64,000 bases of DNA, from the NCBI GenBank assembly GCA_051003415.1, contig JBPCLI010000015.1, forward strand, positions 4,135 through 68,134. The letters are read 5' to 3'. This document shows, piece by piece, positions 1 to 64,000 of the stretch (positions within the stretch are counted from its first letter, which is position 1; every line of letters starts with the position of its first letter). The DNA is from Chthoniobacterales bacterium. GTDB lineage: Bacteria > Verrucomicrobiota > Verrucomicrobiia > Chthoniobacterales > UBA10450. A program made the translations under genes and the position numbers. The notes under the pieces were generated by a model. That model was not told the DNA's origin and did not search any database. It saw only the letters and a list, made by a program, of their open reading frames with translations.

Positions 1-595
1 CGAACCGATCGTGCGCGCCTACATTCTTTGCCCTAACGAATCGATCGGCGATATTCTCCAGCTCATCCTCGAGAAGCGCGGGGTGATGGATCACACCGAG
101 TCGCTCGACACCCGCCGCGTCATGCTCCATTGCGAGTTGCCGCTGAACGAAATCCTGGTCGATTTCAACGACAAAATTAAGAGCATCAGCCGCGGCTATG
201 CCTCGATGGATTACGAGCACGCCGGCTATCGCGTCTCAAATTTGGTCAAACTCGACCTCCTCGTGAATGGCGAACCGGTCGATGCCTTTTCCACCATCGT
301 CCATCGCGATCGCGCCGAATCGCGCGGCCGCCAGTTGGCCTCGAAACTGAAAGAGGTGATCCCAAGCCAGCTTTACCAGGTCGCGATCCAGGCCGCGATC
401 GGTGGCAAGATCGTGGCCCGCGAAACCATCTCCGCCCTGCGCAAAAACGTTACCGCGAAATGCTACGGCGGTGACATCAGCCGCAAACGCAAACTGCTCG
501 AGAAACAAAAAGAGGGGAAGAAGCGGATGAAGAGCATCGGCAAGATCAATATTCCGCAGGAAGCCTTCATTCAGGTTTTGCGGTCGTCGCAATAG
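1..595 (+). CDS. lepA: Elongation factor 4 (LepA), C-terminal part; 5' end outside window
   Basis: The ORF is open to the left edge. The LepA-type C-terminal region is recognisable ([34 protein letters not shown]). It is followed by lepB as in the classic lepA-lepB pair. Confidence 0.9.
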
Positions 596-654
596 AAGCG
601 CGATTCTCCAACAACTGATTTTGCAAACTTCTTTCCTCAGCTAGCGTTCGCCCA

Positions 655-1746
655 ATGTTCGAGCCGCGCTATATCAAGCACAGCCACTTTCTCATCCGCC
701 ACGCGGAGAAGTTGATTCGTTACCGGCACGACCGGCTGAGCGAGTCGACTCTCGCCGAGCTCCGCGCCCAGATTGAAAAAGTGCGGGCGGCGATGAAAGC
801 GCGCGATCAGCGCACGACGCATGAAGAATCAGAGCGCCTCGACGTGCTTCTCAGCCAGCACACACCGCCGCAGAAGGACGCAGTCTGGCGCGAAAATGTC
901 GAAGTCATCCTCGTCGCGATCGTGGTTGCGATCGGCATCCGGTCCTATTTCATCCAGCCCTTCAAGATTCCGACCGGCTCGATGCAGCCGACGCTCAACG
1001 GCATCATCGGGCACCCCATGACCACGCCCGCGCCAAACATTTTCCAGCAGGTCTTCGAATTCGTCGCCTTCGGCCGCAACTACATCGACGTTGTCTCTGA
1101 CGAGGAAAACACCATCATGGACGTCACGCCCCGGAAGATGTTCTTCTTCTTCACGATGTCGCGGATCACCTGCGATCATCAGTCGTTCAGCGTTTACGCG
1201 CCGCCGGAGATCTTGCGACAGGATTTTCAGGTTCTTCCCGGCAATAGCTATCATCGCGGGCAGGTCATCGCGCGCGGTGCAGTCGATACCGGCGACCAGG
1301 TTTTCGTCGATAAATTCAGCTACAACTTCATTCATCCGCATCGCGGCGATGTCTTTGTTTTCCGGACGAATCACATTCTCGGGATTCGCGAGGACCCGGA
1401 GGCAGGCGCGCCGTTTTACATCAAACGCCTGACCGGAACGCCGGGTGACGAGCTGCGGATTGATTCGCCCAAGCTTTACGTCAACGGCGGCCTCGCCAAG
1501 AACTTCGGCATTCGCCGCGTCATGTCGGCAGAGGAACCATACAAGGGCTACTCGCCGGGGCAGGCGTTTCTCGGCACGCCGAACCGCGCTTTCGTCATCC
1601 CGCCGCACTCCTATTTCGCGATGGGCGACAACAGCTACAACAGTTACGACAGTCGCTACTGGGGTCCGGTCCCGGAAGAGAACGTCGTCGGGCGCGGATT
1701 ATTCGTTTACTGGCCCTTCACCCGGCATTGGGGCCTGATTCGTTAG
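655..1746 (+). CDS. lepB: Signal peptidase I
   Basis: N-terminal TM segment; S26 boxes IPTGSMQPTL, RGDVFVF, YIKRLTGTPGDEL, MGDNSYNSYDSRYWGPV. The TAG stop lies inside a CGTTAGGC motif copy. Confidence 0.9.
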   Translation: MFEPRYIKHSHFLIRHAEKLIRYRHDRLSESTLAELRAQIEKVRAAMKARDQRTTHEESERLDVLLSQHTPPQKDAVWRENVEVILVAIVVAIGIRSYFIQPFKIPTGSMQPTLNGIIGHPMTTPAPNIFQQVFEFVAFGRNYIDVVSDEENTIMDVTPRKMFFFFTMSRITCDHQSFSVYAPPEILRQDFQVLPGNSYHRGQVIARGAVDTGDQVFVDKFSYNFIHPHRGDVFVFRTNHILGIREDPEAGAPFYIKRLTGTPGDELRIDSPKLYVNGGLAKNFGIRRVMSAEEPYKGYSPGQAFLGTPNRAFVIPPHSYFAMGDNSYNSYDSRYWGPVPEENVVGRGLFVYWPFTRHWGLIR

Positions 1747-1760
1747 GCGAAGTTTTCCCG

Positions 1761-2939
1761 ATGTTCTCCGCCGTGCCGCGTGTCTATCCGCTGCTCGGGA
1801 TGCTCGCCGGCTACTCCTTGGTCATGCTGGCAAATCCTGTGCGGGTTGCGCTCCGCGACGGTTTTCGCTGCAGTCTGCGCTTTAAGCGCGTCTGGCTTCT
1901 CTTCGCGCTCTTCGCGCTGGCTTATTCCGCCTTTCAGTTTGTCGTCTTCAGTCCGCTGCAATCGTCCGCGGATCTTCGCGTCGAACAATTCGCGTTTTGG
2001 GAATCGTGGCACTGGCCGATCTTCTCCCAGGTCTGGCGCGAGAGTCTCCTTCATACCGCGGAATCGGTGGCCGGTCTTTTCGACGCCGCCGCGACCACTT
2101 GCCCGCTTTCCGTTCTCGCCGCCCTCCTGCTCATTGTGAATTGGCGCGGACTGCACGGCAGTCTGGTGCGCGCCTTGCGCAAACAATTCGGCCCCGCGGG
2201 CTGGCTGATTTACGTCGGCATCCTGCTCAGCGCGCTCGCTTCGTTGCTTAAGCCTTTCATCTATTGGCAGCGCTCGGACCGCTTGCTTTTTCTTTCGCCG
2301 GCGCATCTCCTCCAGACCTCAGCCGCGGTCGACACCGTAGCGTTTATTTTCGAATACCTTTGCGCGGTTTACCTTCAGGTTTACCTGATTGCGGTCTGTC
2401 TCGCGTGGATCAAGGGGCTGAACTTTCGTGAGGGCGAGCTGATGCGTTTTGCCATGCGGCGCTTCAGTTTTGTATTGAAATGGCTCGGCCTCGTGGTGCT
2501 CGCGAGCACGCTCCTTCTGCGCCTGCCGCTTTTGGTTGCTTATTTTCGCGACGTGCCTGGCGTGCTCGATTATTTGCCGATCGGCCGTTGCGCCATGGCC
2601 GCGCTGATCATTTGTTTTTCCTCGATGCAGATTTCGCTCGTTCTGCATAACGAAAGCCTCGCCGAAGCCCTCCGGGCGCACTGGCAATTTGTTAGGCGAC
2701 ACGCTTATCGTCTCGCCTGGTTCCTCGTCATCGGCGCGCTCCATTACTGGTTTCTCTCCCTCGCCGACAGCGTCATCCGCGCGGCTGCGACCGAGCGATT
2801 GCTCGCCTTGTTGCTCTGGAAGATTTTCTACGTCCTGGCCCGAGCCTTCGTCACCGGCTGGCTGCTTGCCAGTTGGGTGGCCCTTTTTCGGCAGTGTGAA
2901 ATCGGGCGGGCAAATCGCGAAACCTGGATCCGGTACTAG
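1761..2939 (+). CDS. Polytopic inner-membrane protein, function unknown
   Basis: Long ORF with high GC3 and many hydrophobic helices. ATG at 1761 (MFSAVPR) lies just after the lepB stop. No family recognised. Confidence 0.55.
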   Translation: MFSAVPRVYPLLGMLAGYSLVMLANPVRVALRDGFRCSLRFKRVWLLFALFALAYSAFQFVVFSPLQSSADLRVEQFAFWESWHWPIFSQVWRESLLHTAESVAGLFDAAATTCPLSVLAALLLIVNWRGLHGSLVRALRKQFGPAGWLIYVGILLSALASLLKPFIYWQRSDRLLFLSPAHLLQTSAAVDTVAFIFEYLCAVYLQVYLIAVCLAWIKGLNFREGELMRFAMRRFSFVLKWLGLVVLASTLLLRLPLLVAYFRDVPGVLDYLPIGRCAMAALIICFSSMQISLVLHNESLAEALRAHWQFVRRHAYRLAWFLVIGALHYWFLSLADSVIRAAATERLLALLLWKIFYVLARAFVTGWLLASWVALFRQCEIGRANRETWIRY

Positions 2940-2943
2940 CGCC

Positions 2944-3780
2944 ATGCCGACCGAGCCTTCCAGCGCCGAGGAAATCACTCGCGCCAGCCAGTCGAACCTG
3001 GCTTTCGCTTTCATTTCGTTAGGCAAAGAGCGTCGGCGCGACATCACGATCTTCTACGCTTACTGCCGGCTGATCGACGACATCGCCGACTCGAGCGAGC
3101 TGCCGCCGGAGGAAAAAGCGCGCCAGTTAAAGCTCTGGCGTGACGCCCTCCACAGGCCGTTCGCGCACGAGTCGCCGCTCGCCCCCAAGGTGCGCGGCTT
3201 GACTGAGCGCTACGCGATCACCCCGGCGATGCTGGAAGAAATCCAAGACGGCGTGGAGATGGATTTAACAATTTCCCGTTACGCAACTTTCCCCGACCTG
3301 CGCGAATATTGTTACCGCGTGGCGAGCGCGGTCGGCCTCGTCAGCATCGAGATTTTTGGTTATCAAAACCCGGCCTGCCGCGAATACGCGATCGAGCTCG
3401 GCCTTGCGTTGCAGGTCACAAATATCCTGCGGGACGTAGCGAAGGATCACGCCAACGGCCGAATTTATCTGCCCCAGGAAGACATGGCGCGCTTCGACTA
3501 CGGCGAGGACGACCTGGCCGCGCACAAATCCGATGACCGATTCGTCAGGCTAATGGAGTTCGAGGCGCAGCGCGCCCACGAGTTTTTCCGAAAAGCCAGC
3601 GCGCTCCTCCCGCGCGAAGACCGGCGCTCGATGATCGGCGCCCGAATCATGTCGTCGATCTATCACGCGCTTCTGCGCCAGATGGAGCGCGATGGTTTCC
3701 GCGTCTTCAACCGGCACTACCGTTTGAGCAAACCGGCAAAATTCCTGCACGTTGGCCGGGAGCTGTTGAAGCTTCATTGA
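2944..3780 (+). CDS. Squalene/phytoene synthase family protein (HpnC/HpnD- or CrtM-like)
   Basis: Internal ATG of the 2689..3780 ORF (MPTEPSS). Two Asp-rich boxes are present: YCRLIDDIADS and ILRDVAKDHANGRIYLPQED. The size (~278 aa) is typical of the family. Confidence 0.85.
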   Translation: MPTEPSSAEEITRASQSNLAFAFISLGKERRRDITIFYAYCRLIDDIADSSELPPEEKARQLKLWRDALHRPFAHESPLAPKVRGLTERYAITPAMLEEIQDGVEMDLTISRYATFPDLREYCYRVASAVGLVSIEIFGYQNPACREYAIELGLALQVTNILRDVAKDHANGRIYLPQEDMARFDYGEDDLAAHKSDDRFVRLMEFEAQRAHEFFRKASALLPREDRRSMIGARIMSSIYHALLRQMERDGFRVFNRHYRLSKPAKFLHVGRELLKLH

Positions 3781-3831
3781 ATAGCTTTCAACAACATCCG
3801 TCTTAACTGCACAGTTCGATTCTAAAGCATT

Positions 3832-5800: not shown

Positions 5801-5922
5801 AGAAATTTCCTAGCTTGCACAGGGCGACCACAGAATAGCATGATTCGACGTCCGTGTTTGAGCGACGGTTTTCCTCTGCGACGCGCAGCGGGAGCAGACA
5901 GAGAAGGTTTTGAGGTGTCGAA

Positions 5923-13618: not shown

Positions 13619-15358
13619 ATGCCGGCCGCTCCTCGCATCGTAAGCCTCAACCTCGGCTCCCAATCGTTAGGCCTGGCGGAGTTTCAGAACCTGCCTAACG
13701 GCGGCCTTGTCCTGACCAGCTACCGCCTGCGCGAGATTCCGGCCGATCCTTCCGCGGAAACGGATCGCAACCGGCAGGTCAGCGAGGCTCTGCCCGCCAT
13801 GATGCGCGAACTCGGGATCAAGCGTGGCCCGGTAGATTACGCGGTCTCCGGGCAGTCCGTTTTCGCGCGCTTCGTGAAATTGCCGTCGGTCGATCCGGAT
13901 AAAATCGACCGCATCATCACCTTCGAGGCCCAGCAAAATGTCCCTTGCCCGATCGAGGAAGTAGTCTGGGATTACCAACTCGTCGGGAGCGGCGATGCGG
14001 AGAAAATCGAAGTCGTGCTGGTCGCGATCAAGGCTGATCTCCTTGAAGGGCTCAACGCCGCCGTCGAGTCGACCGGTTTGCAAACCACGCGCGTCGACGT
14101 CGCGACGATGGCGCTCTACAACGCGTTTCGTTTTAACTACAGCGAGCTGACCGGGTCTTCGCTCCTGATCGACATCGGCGCCCGCACGACCAACCTTCTT
14201 TTCATCGAGCCTGGCAGAGTTTTCAGCCGCAGCATCCCGATCGGCGGAGGCTCGATCACCTCCGCAATCGCGAAGGAATTCAACGAGCCGTTCACGGCGG
14301 CCGAGCTGCGCAAGAAGCAGGACGGGTTCGTTAGTCTGGGCGGCGCCTACGAGGAGCCTTCCGACCCGGAAATAGCGCGCGTCTCAAAGCTCGTCCGCAA
14401 CACCATGACGCGCCTGCACGCGGAAGTGACACGCTCGATCAGTTTTTATCGCACGCAGCAGCAGGGCCAACAGCCGCAGCGCGTCTTTCTATGCGGCGGG
14501 GCGGTCAGCACACCCTATATGCGCGAGTTTTTCCATGAGAAACTCCGGTGGCCGATCGAGTTTTTCAATCCGCTCCGCAACGTCACCGTCGGCGAATCGG
14601 TCCCGATCGAGCAGGTCGCGCACAACGCCCACTTGTTAGGTGAACTCGTCGGGCTGGCACTCCGCAGTACCATGACGTGCCCGATGGAGTTGAACCTGCG
14701 CCCGGCCAACGTGGTGCGCCGGCAGCGCCTCGCCCGACGCCGTCCGTTTTTCGTTTTGGCCGGTGCCTGTTTCATCCTCGGCCTGCTCGGCTGGGGCTTT
14801 TATTTTCTCCGGGTGGCACAGGTCCAAGCCCGGGTCGCGGATAACCTCCAGGTCGAGGTCGACCGGATGCGCGGCGCGGAAAACCCGATCGCCAGTCTGC
14901 GCAAGGAAACGGCCAATCTCGACGCGATCGCGACGCCTTTGCTAAGCGCGATCAGCGACCGAGGCGTCTGGCTCCGAATTCTCGACGACCTGAACGCCCG
15001 GCTCCCGAAGGAGAATATCTGGATCACCGAGCTGGCGCCTACTTCCGGTGGACGAATCATCGGCGAAACGGCGCCGGGGACGTCGCCACCCGCCCCGATG
15101 CCCGCGCGCGGAGCCGCCGGCGGCGGGAAAACAGTCCCGATGATCGATGGCGTTTTCGTTAGGGGGCTTTATCTCTCCAATCCGAAGGAGCAGGAAATCG
15201 TGGTCGACTATTTCCGCAATCTGCTCGACTCCTCCATTTTCGAGGTCGATCCGAATGGGCAATCGGAAGTGATCAGGCCGAGCACGCCGACAAGCACGGA
15301 ATGGGCGTATCCCTACGAGTTGCGCTTGAAACTGCGTCAGCCTTTTGCCCTGCCATGA
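13619..15358 (+). CDS. pilM: Type IV pilus assembly protein PilM fused to a PilN-like membrane segment
   Basis: N-terminal actin/FtsA-like ATPase fold (SLNLGSQSLGLAEF, LIDIGARTTNLLF), followed by a TM segment (FFVLAGACFILGLLGWGFYFL) and a coiled-coil/periplasmic part. Confidence 0.8.
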   Translation: MPAAPRIVSLNLGSQSLGLAEFQNLPNGGLVLTSYRLREIPADPSAETDRNRQVSEALPAMMRELGIKRGPVDYAVSGQSVFARFVKLPSVDPDKIDRIITFEAQQNVPCPIEEVVWDYQLVGSGDAEKIEVVLVAIKADLLEGLNAAVESTGLQTTRVDVATMALYNAFRFNYSELTGSSLLIDIGARTTNLLFIEPGRVFSRSIPIGGGSITSAIAKEFNEPFTAAELRKKQDGFVSLGGAYEEPSDPEIARVSKLVRNTMTRLHAEVTRSISFYRTQQQGQQPQRVFLCGGAVSTPYMREFFHEKLRWPIEFFNPLRNVTVGESVPIEQVAHNAHLLGELVGLALRSTMTCPMELNLRPANVVRRQRLARRRPFFVLAGACFILGLLGWGFYFLRVAQVQARVADNLQVEVDRMRGAENPIASLRKETANLDAIATPLLSAISDRGVWLRILDDLNARLPKENIWITELAPTSGGRIIGETAPGTSPPAPMPARGAAGGGKTVPMIDGVFVRGLYLSNPKEQEIVVDYFRNLLDSSIFEVDPNGQSEVIRPSTPTSTEWAYPYELRLKLRQPFALP

Positions 15359-16284
15359 ACTGGTTTCGTCAGAACCGCTTCCTCGGTATCTTCCTCGTTA
15401 CGCTCGTCCTTGCGACCGGCCTGAGCGTTTATTTTTTACTCTACGAGAAAGACGCGGCCGAGGAAACCGGAGCCCGGCTCGACACGACTGTGACCGAGCT
15501 CAATCGGCTGCGCGGGAGCGCGCCGTTTCCGAACGCCGAAAACCTGCGCAAGACAAAGACGCAGACCGACAACTATCGCAACTCGCTCCTCGCCCTCGAG
15601 ATGGAGTTAAAAAACCGGATGTTTCCGAAGCCGCCGCTCCAGCCTAACGAATTCCAGGCGCTCCTCCGGCAGTCCACCACCGCCGTGGCCGATCGGGCGC
15701 GTGCGAGCAAGGTGCAGTTGCCGGAAAATTTCAATCTTGGCTTCGATGAGTACGCGACCTCGCTCCCGAACAGCCTCGCCGCCCCGCGTCTTGCCCGGCA
15801 GCTGCACGCGATCGAGTGGATTGCCGACACCGTCATCGACTCGCATGTCGATGCCCTCCTCAGCCTGAGCCGCAGCGCGCTTCCGGAAGAGAAAGCGGCT
15901 CCGAGCCCCACCCCGGCAGCTGGCCGCACTACGCGAAAGCCGAAAACGGTGGAACCTAATGCCACGATCGTCGACTCAACCTCGGTCGATGTCAGCTTCG
16001 CCGGCAGCCCGGCCGCGGCGCGGCGGGTCTTCAACCAGATCGCCGCGGCCAAGGAGCAAACTTACATCATCCGTACCTTACACGTGCACAACCAGGCCGA
16101 CAAAGGACCGAAACGCAGCGGTGCAGGAGACGCGCCGTCGGCTCCCACTCCGGCGCCCCGGCCCGGCGGCGCGGCCAAATCGGGAGAAGCCGGCATCAGC
16201 TTTATCGTCGGGACCGAACACGTGAACGTCGCGGCCCGGATCGAGATTCTGCGCTTCGACATTCCGGAAAAGGAGGCTCGTTAG
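15355..16284 (+). CDS. Membrane-anchored pilus-associated protein, Amuc_1100-like (PilO position)
   Basis: ATGA overlap with the pilM/N stop. N-terminal TM anchor, coiled coil, Ala/Pro-rich linker and a C-terminal beta-rich module. Size (~309 aa) and locus position match my recollection of Akkermansia Amuc_1100; this has not been alignment-verified. Confidence 0.55.
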   Translation: MNWFRQNRFLGIFLVTLVLATGLSVYFLLYEKDAAEETGARLDTTVTELNRLRGSAPFPNAENLRKTKTQTDNYRNSLLALEMELKNRMFPKPPLQPNEFQALLRQSTTAVADRARASKVQLPENFNLGFDEYATSLPNSLAAPRLARQLHAIEWIADTVIDSHVDALLSLSRSALPEEKAAPSPTPAAGRTTRKPKTVEPNATIVDSTSVDVSFAGSPAAARRVFNQIAAAKEQTYIIRTLHVHNQADKGPKRSGAGDAPSAPTPAPRPGGAAKSGEAGISFIVGTEHVNVAARIEILRFDIPEKEAR

Positions 16285-16287
16285 GCG

Positions 16288-17369: not shown

Positions 17370-19946
17370 ATGAATCCCTTATCTCACCGCGCTCGAATTC
17401 TCCTCATTATTTCTCTGCTGGCCGTCCCTGGCTGGCTGGCCAGCGCGCAGAGCGTGCGGAGCATCGCCGAGCACGAAGTCTCGCGGCGCCAGAATGCTGT
17501 CCTCCAGGGACAGGCCGCGCTCGCCCGCGGTCGGATCGCACTCGAGACGAAGGATTTCGCCAAGGCGCACGATGAATACCGCGCCGCCGTCACCTTCCTT
17601 CCTGACGCTCTCACCACCGCCGCCGATCACGACGCAGCGGTTGCCGGTTTTTGCGAGAGCGGCGTGAAACTGGCCGAGCAGCGCATCGCCGAGGGCAAAT
17701 ACGGCGAAGCCGAGGTCATCGTGCGGGAGGCCGTCAGTGATCGTTATGGGCCGAATTGCCGTGAGGCTCTCGATCTCCTCGCTCATCTTTCCGAGCCCGG
17801 TTATTTCAACAAGACGATGGGTCCCAAGTTCATCGCCAAGGTCGAGGACGTGAAGAAACTCTTGAGCGACGCCGACGAGTATTACAGCTCCGGCCGCTAC
17901 GATCTCGCCTTCAAGAAATACGAGCAGGTGCTCAACCTCGATCCCTATAACGTGGCCGCGCGCCGCGGTGAAGAGCGGATCGACAATACGAAAACCCACT
18001 ACGGCGAGCAGGCTTACAACGAGACCCGTTCCCGTTCCCTCTGGCAGGTGCAGAAAGGCTGGGAAGAACCGGTCCGCCAATACGGGGAGTCGGTCGGCCC
18101 GATCAGCGATGCGTTCGCGCGGGACGCCGGCGGGACGGCGCGGATCACAAACAAGCTCAACAGCATTATCATTCCGAAGATTGAATTCCGCGACGCCAGC
18201 ATCCGGGAGGCGATCGATTTTCTCCGTCAGCAGGCCGCGGCCAACGATCCTTCAAGCGAGGGAAAACGCGGAGTCGACATTGTTTTGCGGACGACGGCAT
18301 TAGGCCGGGCCGAGGCGCCCACTCCCCCGCCGTTCCGGGAAACCGCGCCGCCCCTACCGGGTGCCTCGCCGGAAGCCGCTCCCGCCGGGATCGAACCCAC
18401 CCCTGTGCCGTTGCCGGCCACTCCCTCGATTGCGCCGAGTGACTCGCGGATCACGATTACGCTCAACCAAATTCCGTTAGGCGAAGCGCTCCGCTATATC
18501 GCCAGCCAGGCGGGCTTGAAAGTGAAAGTCGAGCCCTACGCCGTCTCCGTCATCCCGATCAACGAACAAAGCAGCGACCTCTTCACGAAGGAATATCGGG
18601 TCCCGCCGGGCTTCATCAGCAGCACGGTCACCATTAACGCGACGAAACTGGATCAGGGACCAACTCGCGTCGGGTCGGTCGGCACTGCCAAAGACACACA
18701 GGAAACAACCGGTGGTCAGCTACTAGTTAATCGCCAGACCGCGCTCGACTTTCTGAAGGACCAGGGCGTACCCTTTCCCGCTGGAACGAGCGCTAACTTC
18801 CTTCCGCAAAGCAGCCGCCTGATCGTGAGGAACACGGAGGAAAATCTCGAATTGGTCGACGCGCTTGTTGAGCAGGCTAATGTCGGCGGACCGAAGCAAG
18901 TCGAGATCGAAGCCAAATTTGTTGAGATCACGCAAAATAATCTCAAGGAACTAGGTTTTGACTGGTTGTTAGGCCCATTCGACGCCGGCGCAAATGGCAG
19001 AGTGGTCGCCAACGGCGGCACCTCTGGCACTGCTCCCGGGGTAAATCCCCTTGATTTTCCCGGTTCAATAACAGGCTTGAATCCGGTCACATCGGGCAAT
19101 CGCAGCGGCAATCTCGCGATTAGCGCCAACGCACTCGATGCGCTCCTCTTCGGGATGCCGGGAGCTAGTTCGCTCGCTCCGGGAATCTTCGGACTAAGCG
19201 GTGTTATGACCAGCCCGCAATTTCAGGCCGTCGTTAGGGCGCTCAATCAAAAGAAGGGCGTGGATCTTTTGTCGTCGCCGCGAATTACGACGAAAAGCGG
19301 CCAGCGCGCCGTCATCGAAATCGTTCGAGAGTTTCGTTATCCGACCCAATTTGATCCGCCGAAGGTTCCCCAGGGCAGTGCGAATGGGGGCGCAACTGCC
19401 AATGTCGTTACGCCGACCACGCCGACAGGATTCGAAACGCGCAACACTGGAGTAACACTTGAAGTCGAGCCCGTGGTGGGCCCTGACGGCGTGACCATCG
19501 ATTTGAATCTTGTCCCGCAGGTGGTCGAATTTGAAGGCTTTATCAATTACGGAAGTCCAATTTTCGCTCCATCGAGCAACCCAATAACGCCGCCCTCCTT
19601 GCTTACGCCAAACGTCATTAACCAACCAATCTTTAACACCCGGAAAGTCACTACGAGCGTAAGCGTGTGGGACGGCCAGACGGTCGTGCTCGGCGGCCTC
19701 ATGCGCGAGGACGTGCAGAAGACGGAGGATCGCACTCCGATCATCGGCGATATTCCTATTGTCGGGCGGCTCTTCCGAACCAATGTCGACCAACACATCA
19801 AGCGCAACCTGGTCATCTTCGTGACCGCGCGCTTGGTGAACCCGGCTGGTCAGCCGATCAATTCGACGGAAGAGGAAGAGGAGACTGAAACGGTCAGCCA
19901 AATCGAGCAGCCCGTTCTGCCGCAGGTTCCTTATTACAAAAAGTAG
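17370..19946 (+). CDS. pilQ: Secretin (PilQ/GspD family) with long N-terminal TPR-like and Pro-rich regions
   Basis: Signal peptide from the ATG at 17370. C-terminal secretin domain: VVLGGLMREDVQKTEDRTPIIGDIPIVGRLFRTN ... LVIFVTARLV. Confidence 0.85.
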   Translation: MNPLSHRARILLIISLLAVPGWLASAQSVRSIAEHEVSRRQNAVLQGQAALARGRIALETKDFAKAHDEYRAAVTFLPDALTTAADHDAAVAGFCESGVKLAEQRIAEGKYGEAEVIVREAVSDRYGPNCREALDLLAHLSEPGYFNKTMGPKFIAKVEDVKKLLSDADEYYSSGRYDLAFKKYEQVLNLDPYNVAARRGEERIDNTKTHYGEQAYNETRSRSLWQVQKGWEEPVRQYGESVGPISDAFARDAGGTARITNKLNSIIIPKIEFRDASIREAIDFLRQQAAANDPSSEGKRGVDIVLRTTALGRAEAPTPPPFRETAPPLPGASPEAAPAGIEPTPVPLPATPSIAPSDSRITITLNQIPLGEALRYIASQAGLKVKVEPYAVSVIPINEQSSDLFTKEYRVPPGFISSTVTINATKLDQGPTRVGSVGTAKDTQETTGGQLLVNRQTALDFLKDQGVPFPAGTSANFLPQSSRLIVRNTEENLELVDALVEQANVGGPKQVEIEAKFVEITQNNLKELGFDWLLGPFDAGANGRVVANGGTSGTAPGVNPLDFPGSITGLNPVTSGNRSGNLAISANALDALLFGMPGASSLAPGIFGLSGVMTSPQFQAVVRALNQKKGVDLLSSPRITTKSGQRAVIEIVREFRYPTQFDPPKVPQGSANGGATANVVTPTTPTGFETRNTGVTLEVEPVVGPDGVTIDLNLVPQVVEFEGFINYGSPIFAPSSNPITPPSLLTPNVINQPIFNTRKVTTSVSVWDGQTVVLGGLMREDVQKTEDRTPIIGDIPIVGRLFRTNVDQHIKRNLVIFVTARLVNPAGQPINSTEEEEETETVSQIEQPVLPQVPYYKK

Positions 19947-21541: not shown

Positions 21542-22879
21542 ATGGACGACCAGGCTCTTACCGCCCCCGACGACATTTCTGATTCCGCCGAACCGGTGCC
21601 AGCCCCTAACGAGCCGACGCCGCAAGTGTTCGATTTGCCGCTCCTCCAGGATCTCAGTCCGACGGCCCTGCAGGAATTATTTTCCCGCTTCCAACTCCAT
21701 CCCAATCCCGGCCGGACGCGGCACCAGTCGCTGGTCGATCTTATGCGCCACCTCATCTCGCGCGGCCATCTCGTCCGCACGAGCGGCTTCCTGGAGTTAC
21801 CTCATGAGAGTCCGGCGATGCTGCGCTCTCCCCGCCTCAATTTTCTTCCCCTCCCGGAAGACATCGGCGTGCCGCATCATCTTATCCGCCACTTCGGCCT
21901 CCGGCCTGGGCAGTCTTTGAATGGGACGATTCGCCTCCCGCGCGATCGCGAGAAAACGCTCATGCTCGATCATGTGATCTCGATCGAAGATCAACCGACC
22001 GACCAATGGAAAGCGCCGACCGCGTTCGACAATCTGACGCCGCTCTACCCAGAGGGCCGGATCATGCTGGAGAACAATTCCGCTGATTCCGCCTGCGTGC
22101 GCGCGGTCGATCTGCTCACGCCGCTCGGGCGCGGCCAGCGCGGCTTGATCGTCGCTCCGCCGCGGGTCGGCAAAACGATCCTCCTCAAGCAGATCGCCAA
22201 GGCGATCCGCAAGAATCATCCCGACATCGTGCTCATCATCCTGCTCGTGGACGAGCGACCGGAAGAAGTGACCGATCTGCAACGCGAGGTGGATTGCCAG
22301 ATCTACAGCTCGACCTTTGACGAACCGCCGACCCGCCACGTCCAGGTCGCGGAGCTGGTAAGCGAGCGGGCGAAGCGCCTCGTCGAGCAAAAGAAGGATG
22401 TCGTCCTCCTGCTCGACAGCATTACGCGGCTGGCGCGCGGATATAATTCGCTCGTCAAAGGCAAGGGCCGCACCATGTCGGGCGGCGTGGAAGCGAAAGC
22501 CTTGCTCAAACCGAAACGATTTTTCGCCGCAGCCCGCAACGTCGAAGAAGGCGGCAGCCTAACGATTCTCGCGACCTGCCTGATCGAGACCGGCAGCCGG
22601 ATGGACGAAGTGATTTTCGAAGAGTTCAAGGGAACCGGGAACATGGAACTGCATCTCGACCGCTCGCTGGTCGAGAAACGCCTCTACCCTGCGATCCACA
22701 TTTTGCAGTCTGGCACCCGGCGCGAAGACCTGCTTTATCATCCCGAGGAGTGGGCCCGCGTGCAGTTGTTGCGGAAGGCGATGGCCGCCCTTCCGCCACT
22801 CGAAGCGATGGAGCAGTTGATCAAAAATCTGCACGCGACGAAATCGAACGCTGAACTCTTGCTCGCAGGTCTCCGGTGA
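21542..22879 (+). CDS. rho: Transcription termination factor Rho
   Basis: RIMLEN...[26 protein letters not shown] (Walker A), [33 protein letters not shown]. Confidence 0.95.
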
Positions 22880-23925: not shown

Positions 23926-23936
23926 TTCGTTAGGCG

Positions 23937-24618: not shown

Positions 24619-25784
24619 CGACGCCCTTGCCTAACGAGACGTCGGCGACCGGATTGAGCGAGGATGAACGCCGGCGCTATTCCCGGCACATTATGTTGCC
24701 GGAGATCGGCGTCGCCGGCCAGGAACGTCTGAAAGCGGCGCGCGTCCTTTGCCTGGGCGCGGGCGGGCTCGGGTCGCCCGCCGCCCTTTATCTCGCGGCC
24801 GCGGGCGTTGGCACGATCGGATTGGTCGATGACGACCGGGTCGCGCTCTCAAATCTGCATCGCCAATTGCTCCATGGGGCGAAGGACGTCGGCCGTCCGA
24901 AAACCGAGTCGGCGCGCCAGCGCCTGCGCGATGTGAATCCGGAGATCGACGTGCGCCTTCACTCGTGCCGTTTCGAGAGCGGGAACGCGGAAGAGATCTT
25001 GCGCGATTACGATTTGATCGTGGACGGGACGGATAATTTCGCCACCCGCTACCTTTCCAACGACGTCGCTGTCTTCGCGCGCAAGCCTAACGTTTACGGC
25101 TCGATCTTCCGTTTCGATGGACAGACGACCGTCTTCGCGCCTCACCTCGGCGGACCATGTTATCGCTGCCTTTTTCCTGAACCGCCCCCGCCCGGCGCGG
25201 TCCCTAGTTGCGCGGGGGCCGGCGTCCTCGGCGTGCTCCCGGGAATTGTCGGGACGATGCAGGCGACTGAGGCGCTCAAGCTGATTCTCGGGATCGGCGA
25301 ACCGCTCGTCGGCCGTCTGGTCCACTTCGATGCCCTGAAGATGAAATTTCGCGAGTTTAACCTGAAGCGCGATCCGGAATGTCCGGTTTGCGGCGATCAC
25401 CCGACGATCACCGAGCCGATCGATTACGAAATGTTCTGCCACGGCGCGCCCGATCCAACGCAGGCCGTCGCGCAGATCCAGGTGTGCGAACTGGACGAGC
25501 GGATGCGCTCGGGCCGGCCCTTCATCCTGCTCGATGTGCGGGAGCCGTTCGAATTCGAAATGGCGCGGATCGAGGGCGCGAGTCTGATTCCGTTAGGCGA
25601 ATTGCCGAACCGCTCGCGCGAACTGGACCGCGAGAAAGAGATTTTTGTTATCTGTCACAGCGGAGTGCGAAGCGAACGGGCCGCCGAGTTTCTGCGCTCG
25701 AATGGATTTCCCAAAGTCGTGAATGTCGCGGGCGGGATCGATGCGTGGTCGGAGGAAATTGATCCTGATGTTCCGCGTTACTAG
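24597..25784 (+). CDS. moeB: MoeB/ThiF-type adenylyltransferase (E1-like) with C-terminal rhodanese domain
   Basis: RYSRHIMLPEIG, GAGGLGSP, Zn-binding CYRC...CPVC, and a C-terminal rhodanese loop ICHSGVRS. Confidence 0.9.
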   Translation: MGAGQKIATPLPNETSATGLSEDERRRYSRHIMLPEIGVAGQERLKAARVLCLGAGGLGSPAALYLAAAGVGTIGLVDDDRVALSNLHRQLLHGAKDVGRPKTESARQRLRDVNPEIDVRLHSCRFESGNAEEILRDYDLIVDGTDNFATRYLSNDVAVFARKPNVYGSIFRFDGQTTVFAPHLGGPCYRCLFPEPPPPGAVPSCAGAGVLGVLPGIVGTMQATEALKLILGIGEPLVGRLVHFDALKMKFREFNLKRDPECPVCGDHPTITEPIDYEMFCHGAPDPTQAVAQIQVCELDERMRSGRPFILLDVREPFEFEMARIEGASLIPLGELPNRSRELDREKEIFVICHSGVRSERAAEFLRSNGFPKVVNVAGGIDAWSEEIDPDVPRY

Positions 25785-27951: not shown

Positions 27952-28758
27952 ATGTTTCCTTTACCCACTAAAACTTTTCCGGTGGATGCCGAGGCATTGC
28001 GCGCCGCCCTCGAAGAAAGCATCCTCCGCTTCGTTAGGCCAATCGGTCTAATCGTAACGGTAGAAGATGCCGGTTATCCGAAACTGGCGGCGATCCGCCT
28101 TTCGCTCGATGGCGCGAGTGCGGGAGAACGACAGCCGCCGCGACCGCTCCCCCCGGTCGGCCCGGTCGAGCCCGGATTGCGGGTTGAAGATTTCCAGGTC
28201 AGCGGGCGACCAATCATCGTGCAGCGGGCAAAGGTAGAACTCACCTGTTCCGCGCGCGACGTTCAATTCAACCAGGGACGAGACCGGGATGGGAACGTGC
28301 TCCTGCTTCTCCAGGAGGCCACCAACGGCCGGGTGGAAGTTGCAATCGCGCTGAGTGATCTCGAAGACCTCGTGCTCGGAGGCGCGCGAACGGAAGCGGC
28401 GAAGCAGGGCGTGAAAGTGGAAAGCGTCCGGATCGAGCTGCAGGCCAGTTCCGAGCGCGCGCTCGAGGTGATCGTATACGTGAGCGCGAAGAAGCTCTTT
28501 CTCAACGCCGCCCTCCGGATCAGCGGAAGCGTGGCGATTGACGGGCAATTGAACGCCCGTCTCGCCGGATTGAAATGCGCCGGTGAAGGAGCTCTCGGTA
28601 CGCTGGCCTGCGGCTTCGTCGCTCCTCATCTCGCACGCTTTGACGGACGCGAATTTTCGCTCCTCGCCCTGCCCTTGGGCGAAGTGAAGTTGCGCGATGT
28701 GCGGATCGCGGCCGGTCGCGAACTTCGGGTGACGGCGCAGTTTGGCCGTCCCGCCTAA
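27952..28758 (+). CDS. Hypothetical protein (possibly DUF2993/LmeA-like)
   Basis: 268-aa ORF with high GC3. The family call is only a weak impression. The TAA stop lies inside a GCCTAACG motif copy. Confidence 0.5.
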   Translation: MFPLPTKTFPVDAEALRAALEESILRFVRPIGLIVTVEDAGYPKLAAIRLSLDGASAGERQPPRPLPPVGPVEPGLRVEDFQVSGRPIIVQRAKVELTCSARDVQFNQGRDRDGNVLLLLQEATNGRVEVAIALSDLEDLVLGGARTEAAKQGVKVESVRIELQASSERALEVIVYVSAKKLFLNAALRISGSVAIDGQLNARLAGLKCAGEGALGTLACGFVAPHLARFDGREFSLLALPLGEVKLRDVRIAAGRELRVTAQFGRPA

Positions 28759-28803
28759 CGAATCGAAAATCGTGCCCGGGTCTTCCTACCCCTGAACGCA
28801 AGA

Positions 28804-40145: not shown

Positions 40146-41444
40146 ATGCCGGAAGTAACCTACGACGTGGCCATCATCGGCGGCGGACCCGCAGGGAGCA
40201 CCGCCGCGACGCTGCTCGCCCGGGCCGGTCGGAAAGTGATCGTCTGCGAACGCGAGAGATTCCCGCGCTTCCACATCGGCGAATCACTTTTGCCGGTGAG
40301 CATGAAGACGTTCACCCGGCTCGGGGTGCATGAGAAGTTCGCCCAGGCCGGATTTATCCGGAAGTACGGCGGCGAAATGGCGGGCGCCTGTTCCCAGCAA
40401 GGGGTGAAGTTTTATTTCAAGGACGGCTTCAACTCGCAGACGGAAACGTCCTACCAGGTGCCGCGGGCGGAGTTCGACAAGCTGCTGCTCGATCACGCGG
40501 CGGAGAATGGCGCCGAGGTGCGCGAGGAAACAGCAGTCAAGGGAGTGGAATTTTTCGACGATCGCGTGGAGCTGCAGCTCGAGTCGAAGAGCGGCCACGC
40601 AGAAAAGATCGACGCGCGCTATGTGATCGACGCCAGCGGGCGGCACTCGATTCTGGGGAATCATTTCAAGCTGAAGGAGACCTATCCGCATCTCCAGAAA
40701 ATCTCGATCTTCGCCCACTACGAAGGGGTGGAGGCGGATGAAGGCCGCGACGGCACGCTGACGCGCCAACTGCGCGCGGCCGATCGCTGGTTCTGGTATG
40801 TGCCCTTGCCTAACGACCGGGCCAGCCTCGGCGTGGTGCTCGATACCGCGCTCTATCGGCAGATGAAAAAATCTCCCGAGCAGTTCCTCGAAGAGGCCCT
40901 GGCCGAGCAACCATTTCTCGCCCGGCGCATGACGCACGCCCGGCGGGTCACGCCCGCTTATGCGAGCGCCGACTTTTCCTATCGCCAAACGAAACTTACC
41001 GGCGAGCGCTGGATGCTGGCGGGCGATGCCGCCGGGTTCATCGACCCGGTTTTCAGCAGCGGGGTTTTTCTCGCGCTGCTCGCGGGCGAACAAGCGGCCG
41101 ACATTCTGGATGTCGTGCTCGATCACCCGCACAAGGCGCCCCGGCTCTTTGCCCGATACGAGCGCCTCCTACGACGCACGATGAAAGGCTATCTGCGTTT
41201 CGTCGATGCCTGGTATTCGAAGGAATTCATCGAGGTTTTCCTTTATCCGCAGGATGTCCTGCAGATTCCGCCGGCCGTGAACGCCGTCCTTGGCGGCAAC
41301 ATCAGCGGGAGCTTCGCGATTCGCTGGCGCATGTCGGCCTTCTATTTCATAGTCTGGCTGCAACGCTATCTGCCGCTCTGCCCGCGCCGCACGCTGGTCG
41401 CGCCAAGGGCCCCGGCTCAACCCGCCCTGCGTTCCGCTGCCTAA
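40146..41444 (+). CDS. Flavin-dependent halogenase-like FAD oxidoreductase
   Basis: GGGPAGS, FPRFHIGESLLP, WFWYVP (WxWxIP-like box). N-terminus closely parallels 10423..11814. The TAA stop lies inside a motif copy. Confidence 0.75.
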   Translation: MPEVTYDVAIIGGGPAGSTAATLLARAGRKVIVCERERFPRFHIGESLLPVSMKTFTRLGVHEKFAQAGFIRKYGGEMAGACSQQGVKFYFKDGFNSQTETSYQVPRAEFDKLLLDHAAENGAEVREETAVKGVEFFDDRVELQLESKSGHAEKIDARYVIDASGRHSILGNHFKLKETYPHLQKISIFAHYEGVEADEGRDGTLTRQLRAADRWFWYVPLPNDRASLGVVLDTALYRQMKKSPEQFLEEALAEQPFLARRMTHARRVTPAYASADFSYRQTKLTGERWMLAGDAAGFIDPVFSSGVFLALLAGEQAADILDVVLDHPHKAPRLFARYERLLRRTMKGYLRFVDAWYSKEFIEVFLYPQDVLQIPPAVNAVLGGNISGSFAIRWRMSAFYFIVWLQRYLPLCPRRTLVAPRAPAQPALRSAA

Positions 41445-41475
41445 CGAATGGACCCACGCGCCCGGGAAAACCAAC

Positions 41476-58838: not shown

Positions 58839-60077
58839 TTGACCCCGGCAGGAACTGTCGTGAGTTCGAGCGCCAACACCACCGGAGTCAACGACCGCGG
58901 CTACAACCAGCAGCGCTACGACGTCATTGTCATCGGCGCCGGTGCCGCCGGTCTGATGTGCGCCTTCACTGCCGGACGGCGCGGGCGCCGCGTCGCTCTC
59001 CTCGAATGCAACGCCCGGGTCGGACTCAAGATCGCAATCTCGGGCGGCGGCCGATGTAATTTCACAAATCTTTTCGCCACGCAGGAAAATTACCTTTCCG
59101 GCAACCCGCGTTTCTGCGCCTCGGCTCTCGCCCGTTACCAGCCGCAGGATTTCATCGCCCTCGTCGAGAAACACCGCATCCCGTATCACGAGAAAAAGCT
59201 CGGCCAATTGTTCTGCGACTCCAGTTCGCGTCAGATCGTCGAGATGCTGCTCGCGGAATGCGCCATCGCCGAGGTCGATATCCGCTGCAGTTGCCGGGTC
59301 GAGACGGTCGATAAACGCGCGCGCTTTTCGTTAGGCACGAATCGCGGGGAACTCGAATGCGACTCGCTCGTCATCGCGACCGGCGGCCTTTCGCTCCCTC
59401 GCCTGGGCGCTTCCGATCTCGGTTACCGAATCGCCGAGCAATTCGGGCTTAAGTTGACGGAGACTCGCCCGGGCCTGGTTCCCCTCACCTTTTCGGAAGA
59501 TGAGCGGGAGTTATTCGCGCCGCTGAGCGGAGTGTCTCTCCCGGTCGTGGCCCGCGCGAACGGCGCATCATTTGCGGAGGCGATGCTCATCACGCATCGC
59601 GGCGTGAGCGGGCCCGCGATTCTGCAGGTTTCTTCTTATTGGCGGGAGGCAAAGAGTCTGACGCTCGATCTCCTGCCGGAGCATCCCGGGGCGGAGTGGC
59701 TGCTCGCACAACGCGAAACGAAAACGACCGTCGAAGATTTACTCGCGCGGGAATGGCCGGCACGGTTCGCCTCGAAGTGGTGTGCTCGTTACGCCCCGCC
59801 CAAACGGTTGCAGCAAACGCGCACCGCCGAGCTCGAGCAAGTCGCTCGGCTCATTCACCAGTGGCCGCTTTGGCCGGAGGGCACGGAAGGTTATCCCAAA
59901 GCCGAGGTGACCGTGGGCGGCGTGGAGACCGGTGAATTGTCTTCCAAAACGATGGAGGTGCGACGGGTGCCCGGCCTTTATTTCATCGGCGAAGTGGTGG
60001 ACGTGACCGGCTGGCTCGGCGGCTATAATTTCCAGTGGGCCTGGGCGAGCGGGCACGCGGCGGGTGAAGTTGCCTAA
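58839..60077 (+). CDS. HI0933/BaiN-family FAD-dependent oxidoreductase
   Basis: YDVIVIGAGAAGLMCA, GLKIAISGGGRCNFTN, C-terminal DVTGWLGGYNFQWAWASG. The exact start is uncertain (non-ATG at 58839). Confidence 0.85.
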   Translation: MTPAGTVVSSSANTTGVNDRGYNQQRYDVIVIGAGAAGLMCAFTAGRRGRRVALLECNARVGLKIAISGGGRCNFTNLFATQENYLSGNPRFCASALARYQPQDFIALVEKHRIPYHEKKLGQLFCDSSSRQIVEMLLAECAIAEVDIRCSCRVETVDKRARFSLGTNRGELECDSLVIATGGLSLPRLGASDLGYRIAEQFGLKLTETRPGLVPLTFSEDERELFAPLSGVSLPVVARANGASFAEAMLITHRGVSGPAILQVSSYWREAKSLTLDLLPEHPGAEWLLAQRETKTTVEDLLAREWPARFASKWCARYAPPKRLQQTRTAELEQVARLIHQWPLWPEGTEGYPKAEVTVGGVETGELSSKTMEVRRVPGLYFIGEVVDVTGWLGGYNFQWAWASGHAAGEVA

Positions 60078-60079
60078 CG
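60072..60079. repeat. Exemplar copy of the hyper-abundant 8-mer (GCCTAACG) supplying both convergent stop codons
   Basis: TAA of 58839..60077 (60075-77) and TAG of 60074..60988 on the minus strand (60074-76) overlap inside one motif copy. Confidence 0.95.
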
Positions 60080-60988
60080 AATCCCATCGGACTCTTTTTC
60101 CCGCGCTGCGCGCGCGTGCTTCATCGGCATGATCTTCCTTCCGTGCCGCCGGGCATAGACCTGAGTGAACTCCGCGCCAAAAAAACTGATTAGAGCGGAG
60201 TAATAAATCCACACGAGAAGGACGGCGAAGGAGCCGGCCGCCCCAAAGGCGCTCCCGATCGCGGCGTGACCGAGATAGACGCTGATCAGATATTTCCCTC
60301 CGTTGAAAAGAAGGGATGTGACCACGGCGCCGATCCAGACGTCGCGCCAGCCGATCTCCACGTCGGGAAGATATTTGTAGATCATGGCGAAAAGGATCGC
60401 GACCACGATGAGGGAAATGACGATGTTCCCCGCCTGCCAGAGCCATGGAAAGCTCGGCATCCAGTTCGTCATGTAGTCCTGCAACGCGCTCAGCGCAGCG
60501 CTCAGGACGAGAGAGACAAGCAGTAAAAATCCGACTCCGAGCGCGATCGAAAACGACCGCAATCGATCGACGATGTAATCGAGGACGAGCCCCCGCCGCA
60601 CTTGCACCTGGACGTTCCAAATCGCATTCAGGGCCGACTGAAGTTCCGCGAAAACGACCGAGGCGCCGAGGATGAGCATGACGATACCAATCGTAATCGC
60701 CCAGGCCCCCTTGCCAATCCCAGCAGACGACTCGAGCACGGTTCGGATAGCACTGGCGCCCTGTTCGCCGAGGAGCCGCTGCAGTTCGTTGACGACGCGA
60801 TTGATGGCGGTCTCGCGCGCGAAGAAAAGGCTGGCCCCGCCAACCGCGATCAGGAGGACGGGCGCGACGGAGAAAATCGTGTAAAAAGCCAGCGCAGCGG
60901 CGAGGCGAAAGGTGTTGTCGTTCCACCATTCGGTCCCGGCGTTCCTCAGTAGCATCCACGCTTCGTGTAGTTTGTTTTCGTTTTCCAT
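60074..60988 (-). CDS. YihY/BrkB-family membrane protein
   Basis: WWNDNTFRLAAALAFYTIFSVAPVLLIAV and six TM helices. Confidence 0.85.
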   Translation of the reverse strand: MENENKLHEAWMLLRNAGTEWWNDNTFRLAAALAFYTIFSVAPVLLIAVGGASLFFARETAINRVVNELQRLLGEQGASAIRTVLESSAGIGKGAWAITIGIVMLILGASVVFAELQSALNAIWNVQVQVRRGLVLDYIVDRLRSFSIALGVGFLLLVSLVLSAALSALQDYMTNWMPSFPWLWQAGNIVISLIVVAILFAMIYKYLPDVEIGWRDVWIGAVVTSLLFNGGKYLISVYLGHAAIGSAFGAAGSFAVLLVWIYYSALISFFGAEFTQVYARRHGRKIMPMKHARAAREKESDGIR

Positions 60989-63135: not shown

Positions 63136-63146
63136 CTTCGGAAGCG

Positions 63147-63662
63147 CTACGGGGCCGGCGGTGGAGGTGGTGGGGGCGCTGGCGCACCGGGCGCGCCTGA
63201 CGCTGGCGGGGCACCGGGCGCGCCTGCTGCTCCTCCCGCGACATGCTTTATTTTGATTTCGTAGGCGACTTTCTCGATTCCTGCCGAGCGCACGCGATCG
63301 AGTAACTTCATCACCTCGCCGTGGAGCGCTTCCCTATCGGCGCTAACGAAGACCTTCACATTGGCGTTCCCCTTGTAAAGCGCGAAGAGTCGCGGCATCA
63401 CGTCACCGTCAGTCACCACTTCCTTATCGAAGTGGACGACGCCATCGGCATCCACAAACAAACTGACGTGGTCATGCGGGTCGGGGGTCGGCGTCGGCTG
63501 CGTCGGTGAAACGGACGATGGCAGGTTTGCGCGGATGCCTTTCATGTGCACCTGGCTTAGGCTCACCATCATGAAACTGGCCAGGAGGAAGAACATGATA
63601 TCGATCAGCGGGATGATCTCGATGCGCGCCCTTTTTTTTGGCACTGGCGAAGTCAGTCTCAT
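63147..63662 (-). CDS. exbD: ExbD/TolR-family biopolymer transport protein with Pro-rich tail
   Basis: RARIEIIPLIDIMFFLLASFMMVS TM segment and a periplasmic domain. The C-terminal tail is PPPPPPAP. Confidence 0.85.
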   Translation of the reverse strand: MRLTSPVPKKRARIEIIPLIDIMFFLLASFMMVSLSQVHMKGIRANLPSSVSPTQPTPTPDPHDHVSLFVDADGVVHFDKEVVTDGDVMPRLFALYKGNANVKVFVSADREALHGEVMKLLDRVRSAGIEKVAYEIKIKHVAGGAAGAPGAPPASGAPGAPAPPPPPPPAP

Positions 63663-63677
63663 AGCGGAAGGTGGAGT

Positions 63678-64000
63678 CTAAAGCTGGGCGCCTTGCAACG
63701 TATAGGTAATCGGCACATAGACCTTGTTATAAACGCCTGGCTTGCAACGCCAACGATGGAAGGTGTTGATGGTAGTCGCATCGAGAATCGCGCTCCCGGT
63801 GCTCTGGACGGCTGAGACGTCCGTGACATTGCCACCCGAATCAAAGGTTAACAGGAATTTACCGCTGCCAGTCTGCTTGCTCCGGCGCGCTTCGTAAGGG
63901 TAAACAGGGTGGGGCGCACTTACCATGTTAGCCTTAGCCGACACATAGTTAGCCGTCCCGCTGTAGGCCTGGCCTTTATTTGCTGCGACCTTCGGTCTCG
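63678..64000 (-). CDS. tonB: TonB-family protein, C-terminal domain (5' end outside window)
   Basis: The ORF is open to the right edge. PHPVYPYEARRSKQTGSGKFLLTFDSGGNVTDV is the TonB C-terminal pattern. It lies directly upstream of exbD. Confidence 0.75.
   Translation of the reverse strand, partial: RPKVAANKGQAYSGTANYVSAKANMVSAPHPVYPYEARRSKQTGSGKFLLTFDSGGNVTDVSAVQSTGSAILDATTINTFHRWRCKPGVYNKVYVPITYTLQGAQL

Follow-up and report, generated by a model that had tools for sequence, protein, structure and literature searches.

A hyper-abundant nine-nucleotide word in uncultured soil Verrucomicrobiae, with a genomic signature resembling that of DNA uptake sequences

A single short word is repeated throughout a 64-kb stretch of 60% GC DNA from a Chthoniobacterales bacterium (contig JBPCLI010000015.1 of assembly GCA_051003415.1, positions 4,135 to 68,134), which we call the window and of which both strands were counted. 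The 8-mer CGTTAGGC is present in 64 exact copies, 30 on the plus and 34 on the minus strand, whereas dinucleotide-preserving shuffles of the window yield 1.51 +/- 1.15 copies and never more than 4. Together with TCGTTAGG (65 copies) it is the commonest 8-mer of the window, above every GC-rich word. The 7-nt core CGTTAGG occurs 80 times, i.e. at about 1.25 cores/kb or one per 0.8 kb, with T at position -1 in 65 of the 80 and C at position +8 in 64. Beyond these two positions the flanks show no conservation and are unrelated between copies; the unit is therefore the 9-mer TCGTTAGGC (T-CGTTAGG-C). This 9-mer is found in 49 copies against 0.19-0.26 expected from order-2 and order-3 Markov models of the motif-masked window, an over-representation of about 200-fold, and the word family makes up about 1.1% of the DNA. 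Allowing one mismatch at most raises the matches to 104, against 11.65 expected; positions 1 and 9 tolerate a mismatch, as does position 2 in the form C2>T, and the GTTA inside is all but invariant. The CpG-decay variant TTGTTAGGC is also enriched (5 copies, 0.1 expected). With the word masked, the window holds no further hyper-abundant word. A first-pass annotation, read by eye, had put the copies at about 64, split 30 to 34 between the strands, more than 20-fold in excess and usually preceded by T; the count and the split prove exact, each position it gave lies no more than 11 nt from a true copy, and the expectations and the flank counts given here bear out the rest. A short (9-12 nt), non-palindromic word recurring about once per kb and far above expectation is also what characterizes the uptake signal sequences (USS) of Pasteurellaceae and the DNA uptake sequences (DUS) of Neisseriaceae.

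To place the copies, a gene map of 55 genes was self-trained on the window and checked by comparison with Pfam hits and with the NCBI gene calls of syntenic loci. The earlier gene labels hold: PilM, the secretin, a ThiF/rhodanese (MoeB-like) gene and a PMT_2 (GT39-like) gene. The word family, the individual copies that matter below and two genes of context are as follows.

1..64000, both strands: dispersed family T-CGTTAGG-C, with 80 cores, 64 exact 8-mers and 49 exact 9-mers.
1740..1748, plus: word copy supplying, at 1744-1746, the TAG stop of the signal peptidase gene 655-1746.
16278..16286, plus: word copy whose TAG is the stop codon of the pilus-cluster gene 15355-16284.
28753..28761, minus: word copy whose TAA, read on the plus strand, is the stop codon of the gene 27982-28758.
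41439..41447, minus: word copy that ends the FAD-dependent halogenase-like gene 40146-41444 with its TAA; also present in Logan contig L001.
45136..45144, plus: word copy that ends the LolA-like gene 44474-45142 with its TAG.
60072..60080, minus: single copy stopping two convergent overlapping genes, as TAA for 58839-60077 (plus) and as TAG for 60074-60988 (minus).
22557..22565, minus: word copy in rho (frame nnC-CTA-ACG), where relative L002 reads the synonymous Leu codon CTG.
25085..25093, minus: word copy in the MoeB-like gene, in frame CCT-AAC-G (Pro-Asn); L002 has CCG-AAC, synonymous.
23927..23935, plus: intergenic word copy 3' of an RNase D-like gene, kept at the orthologous position in L002.
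13664..13701: the sole close inverted pair of the window (13664-13672 plus, 13693-13701 minus), inside the pilM coding sequence and not a terminator.
13619..15358, plus: PilM-like type IV pilus assembly gene (context only).
17370..19946, plus: tetratricopeptide repeat (TPR)-secretin gene (context; anchor for fetching loci).

About 63-64 of the 80 cores (~80%) are in coding DNA, the other 16 falling in spacers or on gene edges, which corresponds to densities of 1.16/kb in coding and 1.84/kb in non-coding DNA, a modest non-coding excess. Copies cluster toward gene ends, and 73% of genes hold at least one. Since the word contains TAG in one orientation and TAA in the other, two of its six frames are closed by a stop, and the four stop-free frames are all occupied (25, 15, 12 and 11 copies); inside genes 36 copies are antisense and 27 sense, with no bias of gene orientation. 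When synonymous codons are resampled with proteins and codon usage fixed (300 draws), 4.0 +/- 1.9 in-gene cores are obtained, with a maximum of 11, against 63 observed. Thus it is the DNA word, and not a peptide, that is under selection or drive; the first-pass annotation had argued as much, for selection, from copies seen in different frames.

The word draws on rare codons. It accounts for 15 of the 53 TTA, 11 of the 52 CTA, 12 of the 43 AGG and 25 of the 125 CCT codons, and TTA, CTA and AGG are the rarest Leu and Arg codons of the window's genome. Its dominant frame, CCT-AAC-G, is the one with the least rare codons. The copy in rho depends on a rare codon, since L002 has the synonymous CTG at that site. 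At Pro-Asn-[ADEGV] sites the spelling CCT-AAC-G is used in 25 cases out of 36, where 2.7 would be expected, and the Pro-Asn dipeptide is itself enriched in the proteins of the window (56 versus 32), so that the word has shaped proteins too. This combination of multi-frame use, codon-quality bias and peptide enrichment is shared with USS and DUS, in which, according to Findlay and Redfield, frame use follows codon quality and word-encoded peptides are about two-fold enriched.

The word also supplies the stop codon of 10 of the 55 genes, five times as TAG and five times as TAA. Overall the window uses 21 TAG, 21 TGA and 13 TAA stop codons, a TAG frequency equal to that of TGA being unusual for bacteria. 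The copy that ends the halogenase-like gene recurs in L001 (2.3 kb, 100% identical to the window), the sole contig returned by an exact-protein look-up of the window genes. A separate TAG splits a CLC chloride-channel gene (38005-39846, minus strand) in frame into two open reading frames near 38.80 kb (...KAIV*SISLGSGTSGG...); the split may mark a pseudogene, a site of read-through or an error of sequencing. Downstream of this TAG, at a distance of 6 nt, stands TCGTTAGGT (Ser-Leu-Gly), which departs from the word at one position.

The two orientations are interleaved throughout the window without a switch, as first claimed. The first 46 kb have a negative GC skew, and past that point the skew stays near zero, with no clear reversal. 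The gene strand changes at 47 kb, and CGTTAGGC is oriented 20/28 (plus/minus) before that point and 10/6 after it, without a clean flip. Contigs of relatives are also balanced between the strands (14/14, 16/20 and 10/8). Equal use of both orientations without replication-strand polarity, seen in the window and in these contigs, is again a property of USS and DUS. Copies are spaced more evenly than random (coefficient of variation 0.77 versus 0.98, P=0.008), and only 4 gaps between copies are shorter than 100 nt where 9.4 are expected. The same evenness is found in the syntenic relatives L163 and L165, which are not independent samples. The large copy-free gaps contain ordinary genes and are of sizes within chance, and therefore the window itself gives no evidence on core versus acquired DNA.

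The window itself belongs in Verrucomicrobiae on the evidence of rho, the type IV pilus-like cluster and its other genes, and one of its proteins shares 99% identity with a protein from a 'Spartobacteria bacterium' metagenome-assembled genome. For comparison with relatives, 80 related soil loci were fetched with the secretin gene as anchor. Counts from single loci only were used for word discovery; pooling orthologous loci was rejected because shared ancestry inflates counts. The word is not confined to the window, as a similar density (about 0.6-1.8 cores/kb) is found in about ten related genomes or contigs (L002, L003, L082, L095, L104, L124, L135, L159 and L162-L166). These include L002 and L003, whose Rho proteins are 78% and 69% identical to that of the window, L162, L163, L165 and L166, with 73-85% nucleotide identity to the window and 1.2-1.8 cores/kb, and the nearest soil-metagenome relatives of the secretin (L082, L124 and L159), all of which are rich in the word. 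The word is also found in those flanks of L002 and L003 that are not syntenic with the window, which makes it a genome-wide property and not that of one region; totals for whole genomes are extrapolated from a sample of about 250 kb of the clade. In other bacteria, including other Verrucomicrobiota (1.22 Mb), the core is at background (34 copies versus 40.8 expected), and in the remaining members of the same soil family it is enriched only about 2.6-fold. The word is thus restricted to one clade of uncultured soil Verrucomicrobiae (Spartobacteria/Chthoniobacterales-like).

Other candidates met in the fetched loci were set aside. In the Desulfacinum locus L047 the apparent enrichment (7 copies) comes from an array of tandem heptamers and has no bearing here. 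GGAGGGAC in L098 is not a comparable word, belonging to a REP-like (repetitive extragenic palindromic) hairpin element; at 3976-19782 this locus carries a palindromic intergenic element, TGGAGGGACG(G/C)(G/C)CGC(T/C)G...CGTCCC, about 15 times in 22.6 kb and often paired. ATGACGAA in L148, L106 and L152 belongs to tandem coding repeats, and ACCACGGA in L129 is a piece of a longer composite repeat. Between the window (47411-49800) and L162 (GCA_039931045.1) identity reaches 94-98% over about 2.4 kb around a DUF4331 gene and then falls to 73-87% for the next 5.6 kb; this reflects either recent homologous recombination between diverged lineages or a chimeric contig of a metagenome-assembled genome.

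At orthologous positions the word sites of the window are kept well above a baseline defined as any 7-mer in the same alignment: 75% versus 35% in L163, 74% versus 27% in L165, 92% versus 38% in L162, 47% versus 14% in L166 and 62% versus 19% in L002 (P from 2e-8 to 0.008 across the five relatives). The first-pass annotation had proposed looking for retention of the word in orthologues where synonymous alternatives exist; the five closer relatives do keep the sites. In the distant L003 site conservation is at background (10% versus 12.5%) and word density is unchanged. Conservation at short range, and its loss at equal density at long range, indicate that sites are maintained over short distances and replaced over long ones. 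Orthologues with and without the motif differ by substitutions and not by indels. The differences cluster at core positions 4 and 5, where the main frames have synonymous third positions, and the motif side carries the rarer A/T-ending codon (e.g. CTA versus CTG, CCT versus CCG). They are of the types T/C, A/C and A/G, with a single C/T difference at CpG, and such a variety argues against a very-short-patch repair bias of a single type. This origin by point substitution at orthologous sites, along with the unrelated flanks, agrees with the earlier statement that the copies are not a dispersed mobile element.

The word also varies between relatives. In L003 the consensus extends to ACTCGTTAGGC, a flank dialect; point-mutation origin, conservation in close relatives and dialects are all found in USS and DUS. 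At 15625-17857 and 20025-21309 of L003, word copies flanked by identical long sequences return every 558 or 642 nt within tandemly repeated coding domains; they were counted once for the dialect logo. Several relatives that are poor in or without TCGTTAGGC (here W1) carry a second, unrelated hyper-abundant word, AAGATCGACA(A) (W2). In L104 (1-22667), AGATCGAC is present in 40 copies in 22.7 kb against 1.7 expected, and the second word there is split 28/26 between the strands, occupies all six frames and has unrelated flanks. There are 19 copies of it in L118, and it is also found in L100, L103, L083 and L088. L104 bears both words, with TCGTTAGGC at 0.7/kb.

In L002, a non-syntenic low-GC stretch (1-9300; GC 0.555 versus about 0.62) holds 1 word copy in 9.3 kb, compared with 14 copies in 11.3 kb of the adjoining core genes; a Y1 transposase of IS200-like type is encoded there, along with a methyltransferase and a phosphoesterase. 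When IMG/VR was scanned four times for paired 9-mers, 50 loci came back, and three of these are clearly phage or mobile DNA with a dispersed, host-like density of the word.

L184 (UViG_3300037261_000237), 1-13890: 17 cores in 13.9 kb (1.22/kb); terminase, portal, holin and repressor-like genes.
L180 (UViG_3300036819_000104), 1-12120: 12 cores in 12.1 kb (0.99/kb); terminase, portal, head protease and major head genes.
L170 (UViG_3300005937_000047), 1-12874: 8 cores in 12.9 kb (0.62/kb); integrase, DnaB and anti-restriction genes.

The copies in phage DNA sit within structural genes (terminase, portal and head-protease/head), and the word-bearing contigs carry markers of temperate phages, namely a repressor-like regulator and an integrase. 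Depletion in acquired DNA and accumulation in phages are seen in one island and three contigs, a sample too small to establish either trend. The phage contigs have a parallel in Pasteurellaceae, whose temperate phages accumulate USS up to the level of the host and whose large lytic phages do not. Given their host-like density, the word predicts the host clade of these phage or mobile contigs.

The reading that we favour, and to which we give about half of our belief, is that TCGTTAGGC is a lineage-specific tag of self DNA read by the transformation machinery in the manner of USS and DUS, which would make it the first candidate outside Proteobacteria. It concerns the mode of action and not membership of a family, the sequence being unrelated to either USS or DUS. 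The hallmarks of USS and DUS that can be computed all match, save for the pairing of copies at terminators. The resemblance drawn in the first-pass annotation thus stands for density, in-gene location and orientation, and extends to lineage specificity, site conservation, spacing, codon-driven frames, enriched peptides and, on a small sample, phages; it fails for the terminator inverted pairs, which are absent. In the mechanism that we propose, a surface DNA receptor of the transformation machinery would bind double-stranded DNA that bears the word, and fragments from conspecifics would be preferentially taken up and recombined. Over time, this uptake bias together with mutation, i.e. a molecular drive possibly helped by selection, would seed the word wherever the sequence tolerates it: at synonymous positions, Pro-Asn sites and stop codons, in spacers and in long-resident prophages. 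Such a mechanism would imply that these uncultured organisms are competent and that they possess both the uptake bias and its receptor.

Several observations weigh against this reading. No predicted terminator-like hairpin in the window contains the word, and the one close inverted pair is intragenic, whereas about half of the copies of DUS and USS sit in terminators; inverted-repeat pairs of this kind are common in both systems and are not required for uptake. The pilus and secretin cluster, which the first-pass annotation had set beside the word, is conserved in relatives without the word as well as in those with it and is therefore not specific evidence for uptake. Pfam searches limited to the 64-kb window found no pilin, ComEA, ComEC or DprA in it, and a six-frame search of the window for the prepilin motif found none, and no ComP-like pilin was found there. 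The Lys/Arg-rich secreted protein encoded beside the secretin (19988-20767) was considered as a possible DNA binder and rejected, as Pfam has no match for it and none of the fetched loci encodes a homologue. In the literature searched there is no report of natural transformation in Verrucomicrobia, and a paper on the evolution of ComEC makes no mention of them. All in-gene statistics depend on our own gene map, which was checked by Pfam and NCBI calls only. An intracellular process working on whatever DNA resides in the cell would also account for the density of the word within phage structural genes. Finally, we know of no precedent among uptake sequences for two unrelated hyper-abundant words in one genome, as in L104.

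The intracellular process just mentioned is the alternative that survives best, and we consider it unlikely without dismissing it. Here the word would be the site of an abundant intracellular DNA-binding protein, serving nucleoid organisation, as proposed for the cyanobacterial word HIP1, or an orientation-independent cytoplasmic signal for self/non-self discrimination or recombination, and selection would keep it at about 1/kb. The even spacing, the conserved sites and the host-level density in phage structural genes all fit such a site, and Xu et al. drew the same inference for HIP1, which they took to be selected from its site conservation and periodicity. However, no candidate protein is known, the classes compared are sparser or different in kind (Chi and KOPS being strand-polar and HIP1 a palindrome), and the word is rare in the compositionally foreign island of L002. 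The specificity of the protein would moreover have to shift between sister lineages, which carry W1, W2 or neither. HIP1 itself is now tied to transformation, recent work having linked it to transformation efficiency.

Quite improbable, in our estimate, is that the word is a neutral by-product of biased repair or gene conversion, for example by a methyltransferase-associated, very-short-patch-like system that converts near-cognates in resident DNA. Such a bias, which has been discussed for HIP1, would explain genes, spacers and phages alike, and the quick change of methyltransferase specificities would fit the lineage specificity of the word. The orthologous sites, however, are kept above background, which points to maintenance and not to continual random replenishment, by the reasoning that Xu et al. 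used for HIP1, and the copies are spaced too evenly for a random scatter. Motif and non-motif orthologues show differences of several types at two positions, with one C/T at CpG, and the word is not a palindrome. In addition, the enrichment of TTGTTAGGC indicates that deamination products are not efficiently corrected.

A polar signal co-oriented with replication, whether Chi (read by RecBCD/AddAB) or the KOPS (FtsK orienting polar sequences) and SRS (SpoIIIE recognition sequences) read by FtsK/SpoIIIE, would also be an asymmetric word of 8-9 nt that is frequent in genes. We regard it as very improbable here: the 30/34 split despite the GC skew, the lack of a flip at 47 kb and the balanced strands of the relatives leave co-orientation unsupported. 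Chi is only a few-fold over-represented, at about once per 5 kb in E. coli, and KOPS/SRS are only modestly over-represented, in contrast to a word that is 45- to 200-fold over-represented at about 1/kb. Lastly, an origin as remnants of a mobile or repetitive element (MITE, a miniature inverted-repeat transposable element, or REP), as a composition artefact or as a repeated peptide has the repetition itself in its favour, and REP-like and tandem words do exist in L098, L129 and L148, but it is refuted by the lack of conservation past 9 nt (REP and MITE elements being longer than such a core, usually intergenic and hairpin-forming), by the use of four frames and both orientations with ~80% of copies intragenic, by substitutions without indels, by shuffles, Markov models and codon resampling that each fall short by at least 15-fold, and by outgroups at expectation.

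To return to the favoured self-DNA tag, sequence-specific DNA uptake is, according to the literature searched and as of late 2025, known from only two proteobacterial families, Pasteurellaceae and Neisseriaceae, both studied in pathogens. In the same literature, neither the word nor any uptake sequence in Verrucomicrobia has been described, in line with the earlier remark that none was known for this lineage; a search for the word matched only papers on primers and on nematode telomeres, TTAGGC being the telomere unit of C. elegans, a coincidence. More tentatively, and with more doubt than we attach to the tag itself, we suggest that soil Verrucomicrobiae may run self-DNA recognition for transformation, the first such case outside Proteobacteria, that the tag may switch between unrelated words (TCGTTAGGC here, AAGATCGACA in sisters and both in at least one) and not only undergo small dialect changes, and that phages may adopt it. 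If this is true, species-selective transformation would be more widespread, including in soil, where recombination is common and its mechanism unknown. The two unrelated words that co-occur or replace each other in sister lineages would then be a natural experiment on the co-evolution of a tag and its reader. In practical terms, uptake assays, pull-downs of a receptor and checks of methylomes in existing Nanopore soil data now have a concrete 9-mer to work with. The word can be used as a barcode for contig binning, as a flag for foreign islands and as a means of assigning phages to hosts, by which the three IMG/VR contigs have been tied to the clade, and it could aid the design of DNA acceptable to these unculturable or genetically intractable bacteria.

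Placed among known systems, the word shares with Chi and KOPS/SRS that it is short, asymmetric and frequent in coding DNA, but those signals are co-oriented with replication and the word has no orientation bias. HIP1 (GCGATCGC, cyanobacteria) is the only other word of comparable hyper-abundance: it is 15- to 300-fold over-represented, at about one copy per gene, intragenic, conserved in its sites and non-randomly spaced. It is also palindromic, recognised by an orphan methyltransferase and distributed phylum-wide, whereas the word is asymmetric and belongs to few related lineages. USS and DUS are words of 9-10 nt present in hundreds to thousands of copies, taking up to about 2% of a chromosome. 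Like the word, DUS (ATGCCGTCTGAA and its dialects, recognised in Neisseriaceae by the minor pilin ComP) is a hyper-abundant, short and asymmetric 'watermark' of a lineage that differs in dialect from one relative to another; its depletion in foreign DNA and its occurrence in some mobile elements recall the one island and three contigs described above. Unlike the word, which is ~80% intragenic and found in no terminator, DUS is mostly intergenic and often forms inverted-repeat terminators. From USS (AAGTGCGGT / ACAAGCGGT, Pasteurellaceae) the word, known here from its genomic signature alone, differs in its unrelated sequence, its phylum and its almost complete lack of terminator pairs, and in having stop codons on both strands, which leaves four usable frames and lets 10 of 55 genes end in it. 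What is new is thus the genomic signature of USS and DUS in a new phylum, in an unrelated word with stop codons on both strands and no terminator role, and with an unrelated second word in sister lineages. In other respects USS is like the word: a 9-nt asymmetric core with weaker flanks, at about 1/kb on both strands without replication bias, mostly intragenic with a modest excess in spacers and gene ends, and marked by frames that follow codon quality, enriched peptides, origin by point substitution, clade dialects and, as far as three contigs show for the word, accumulation in temperate phages.

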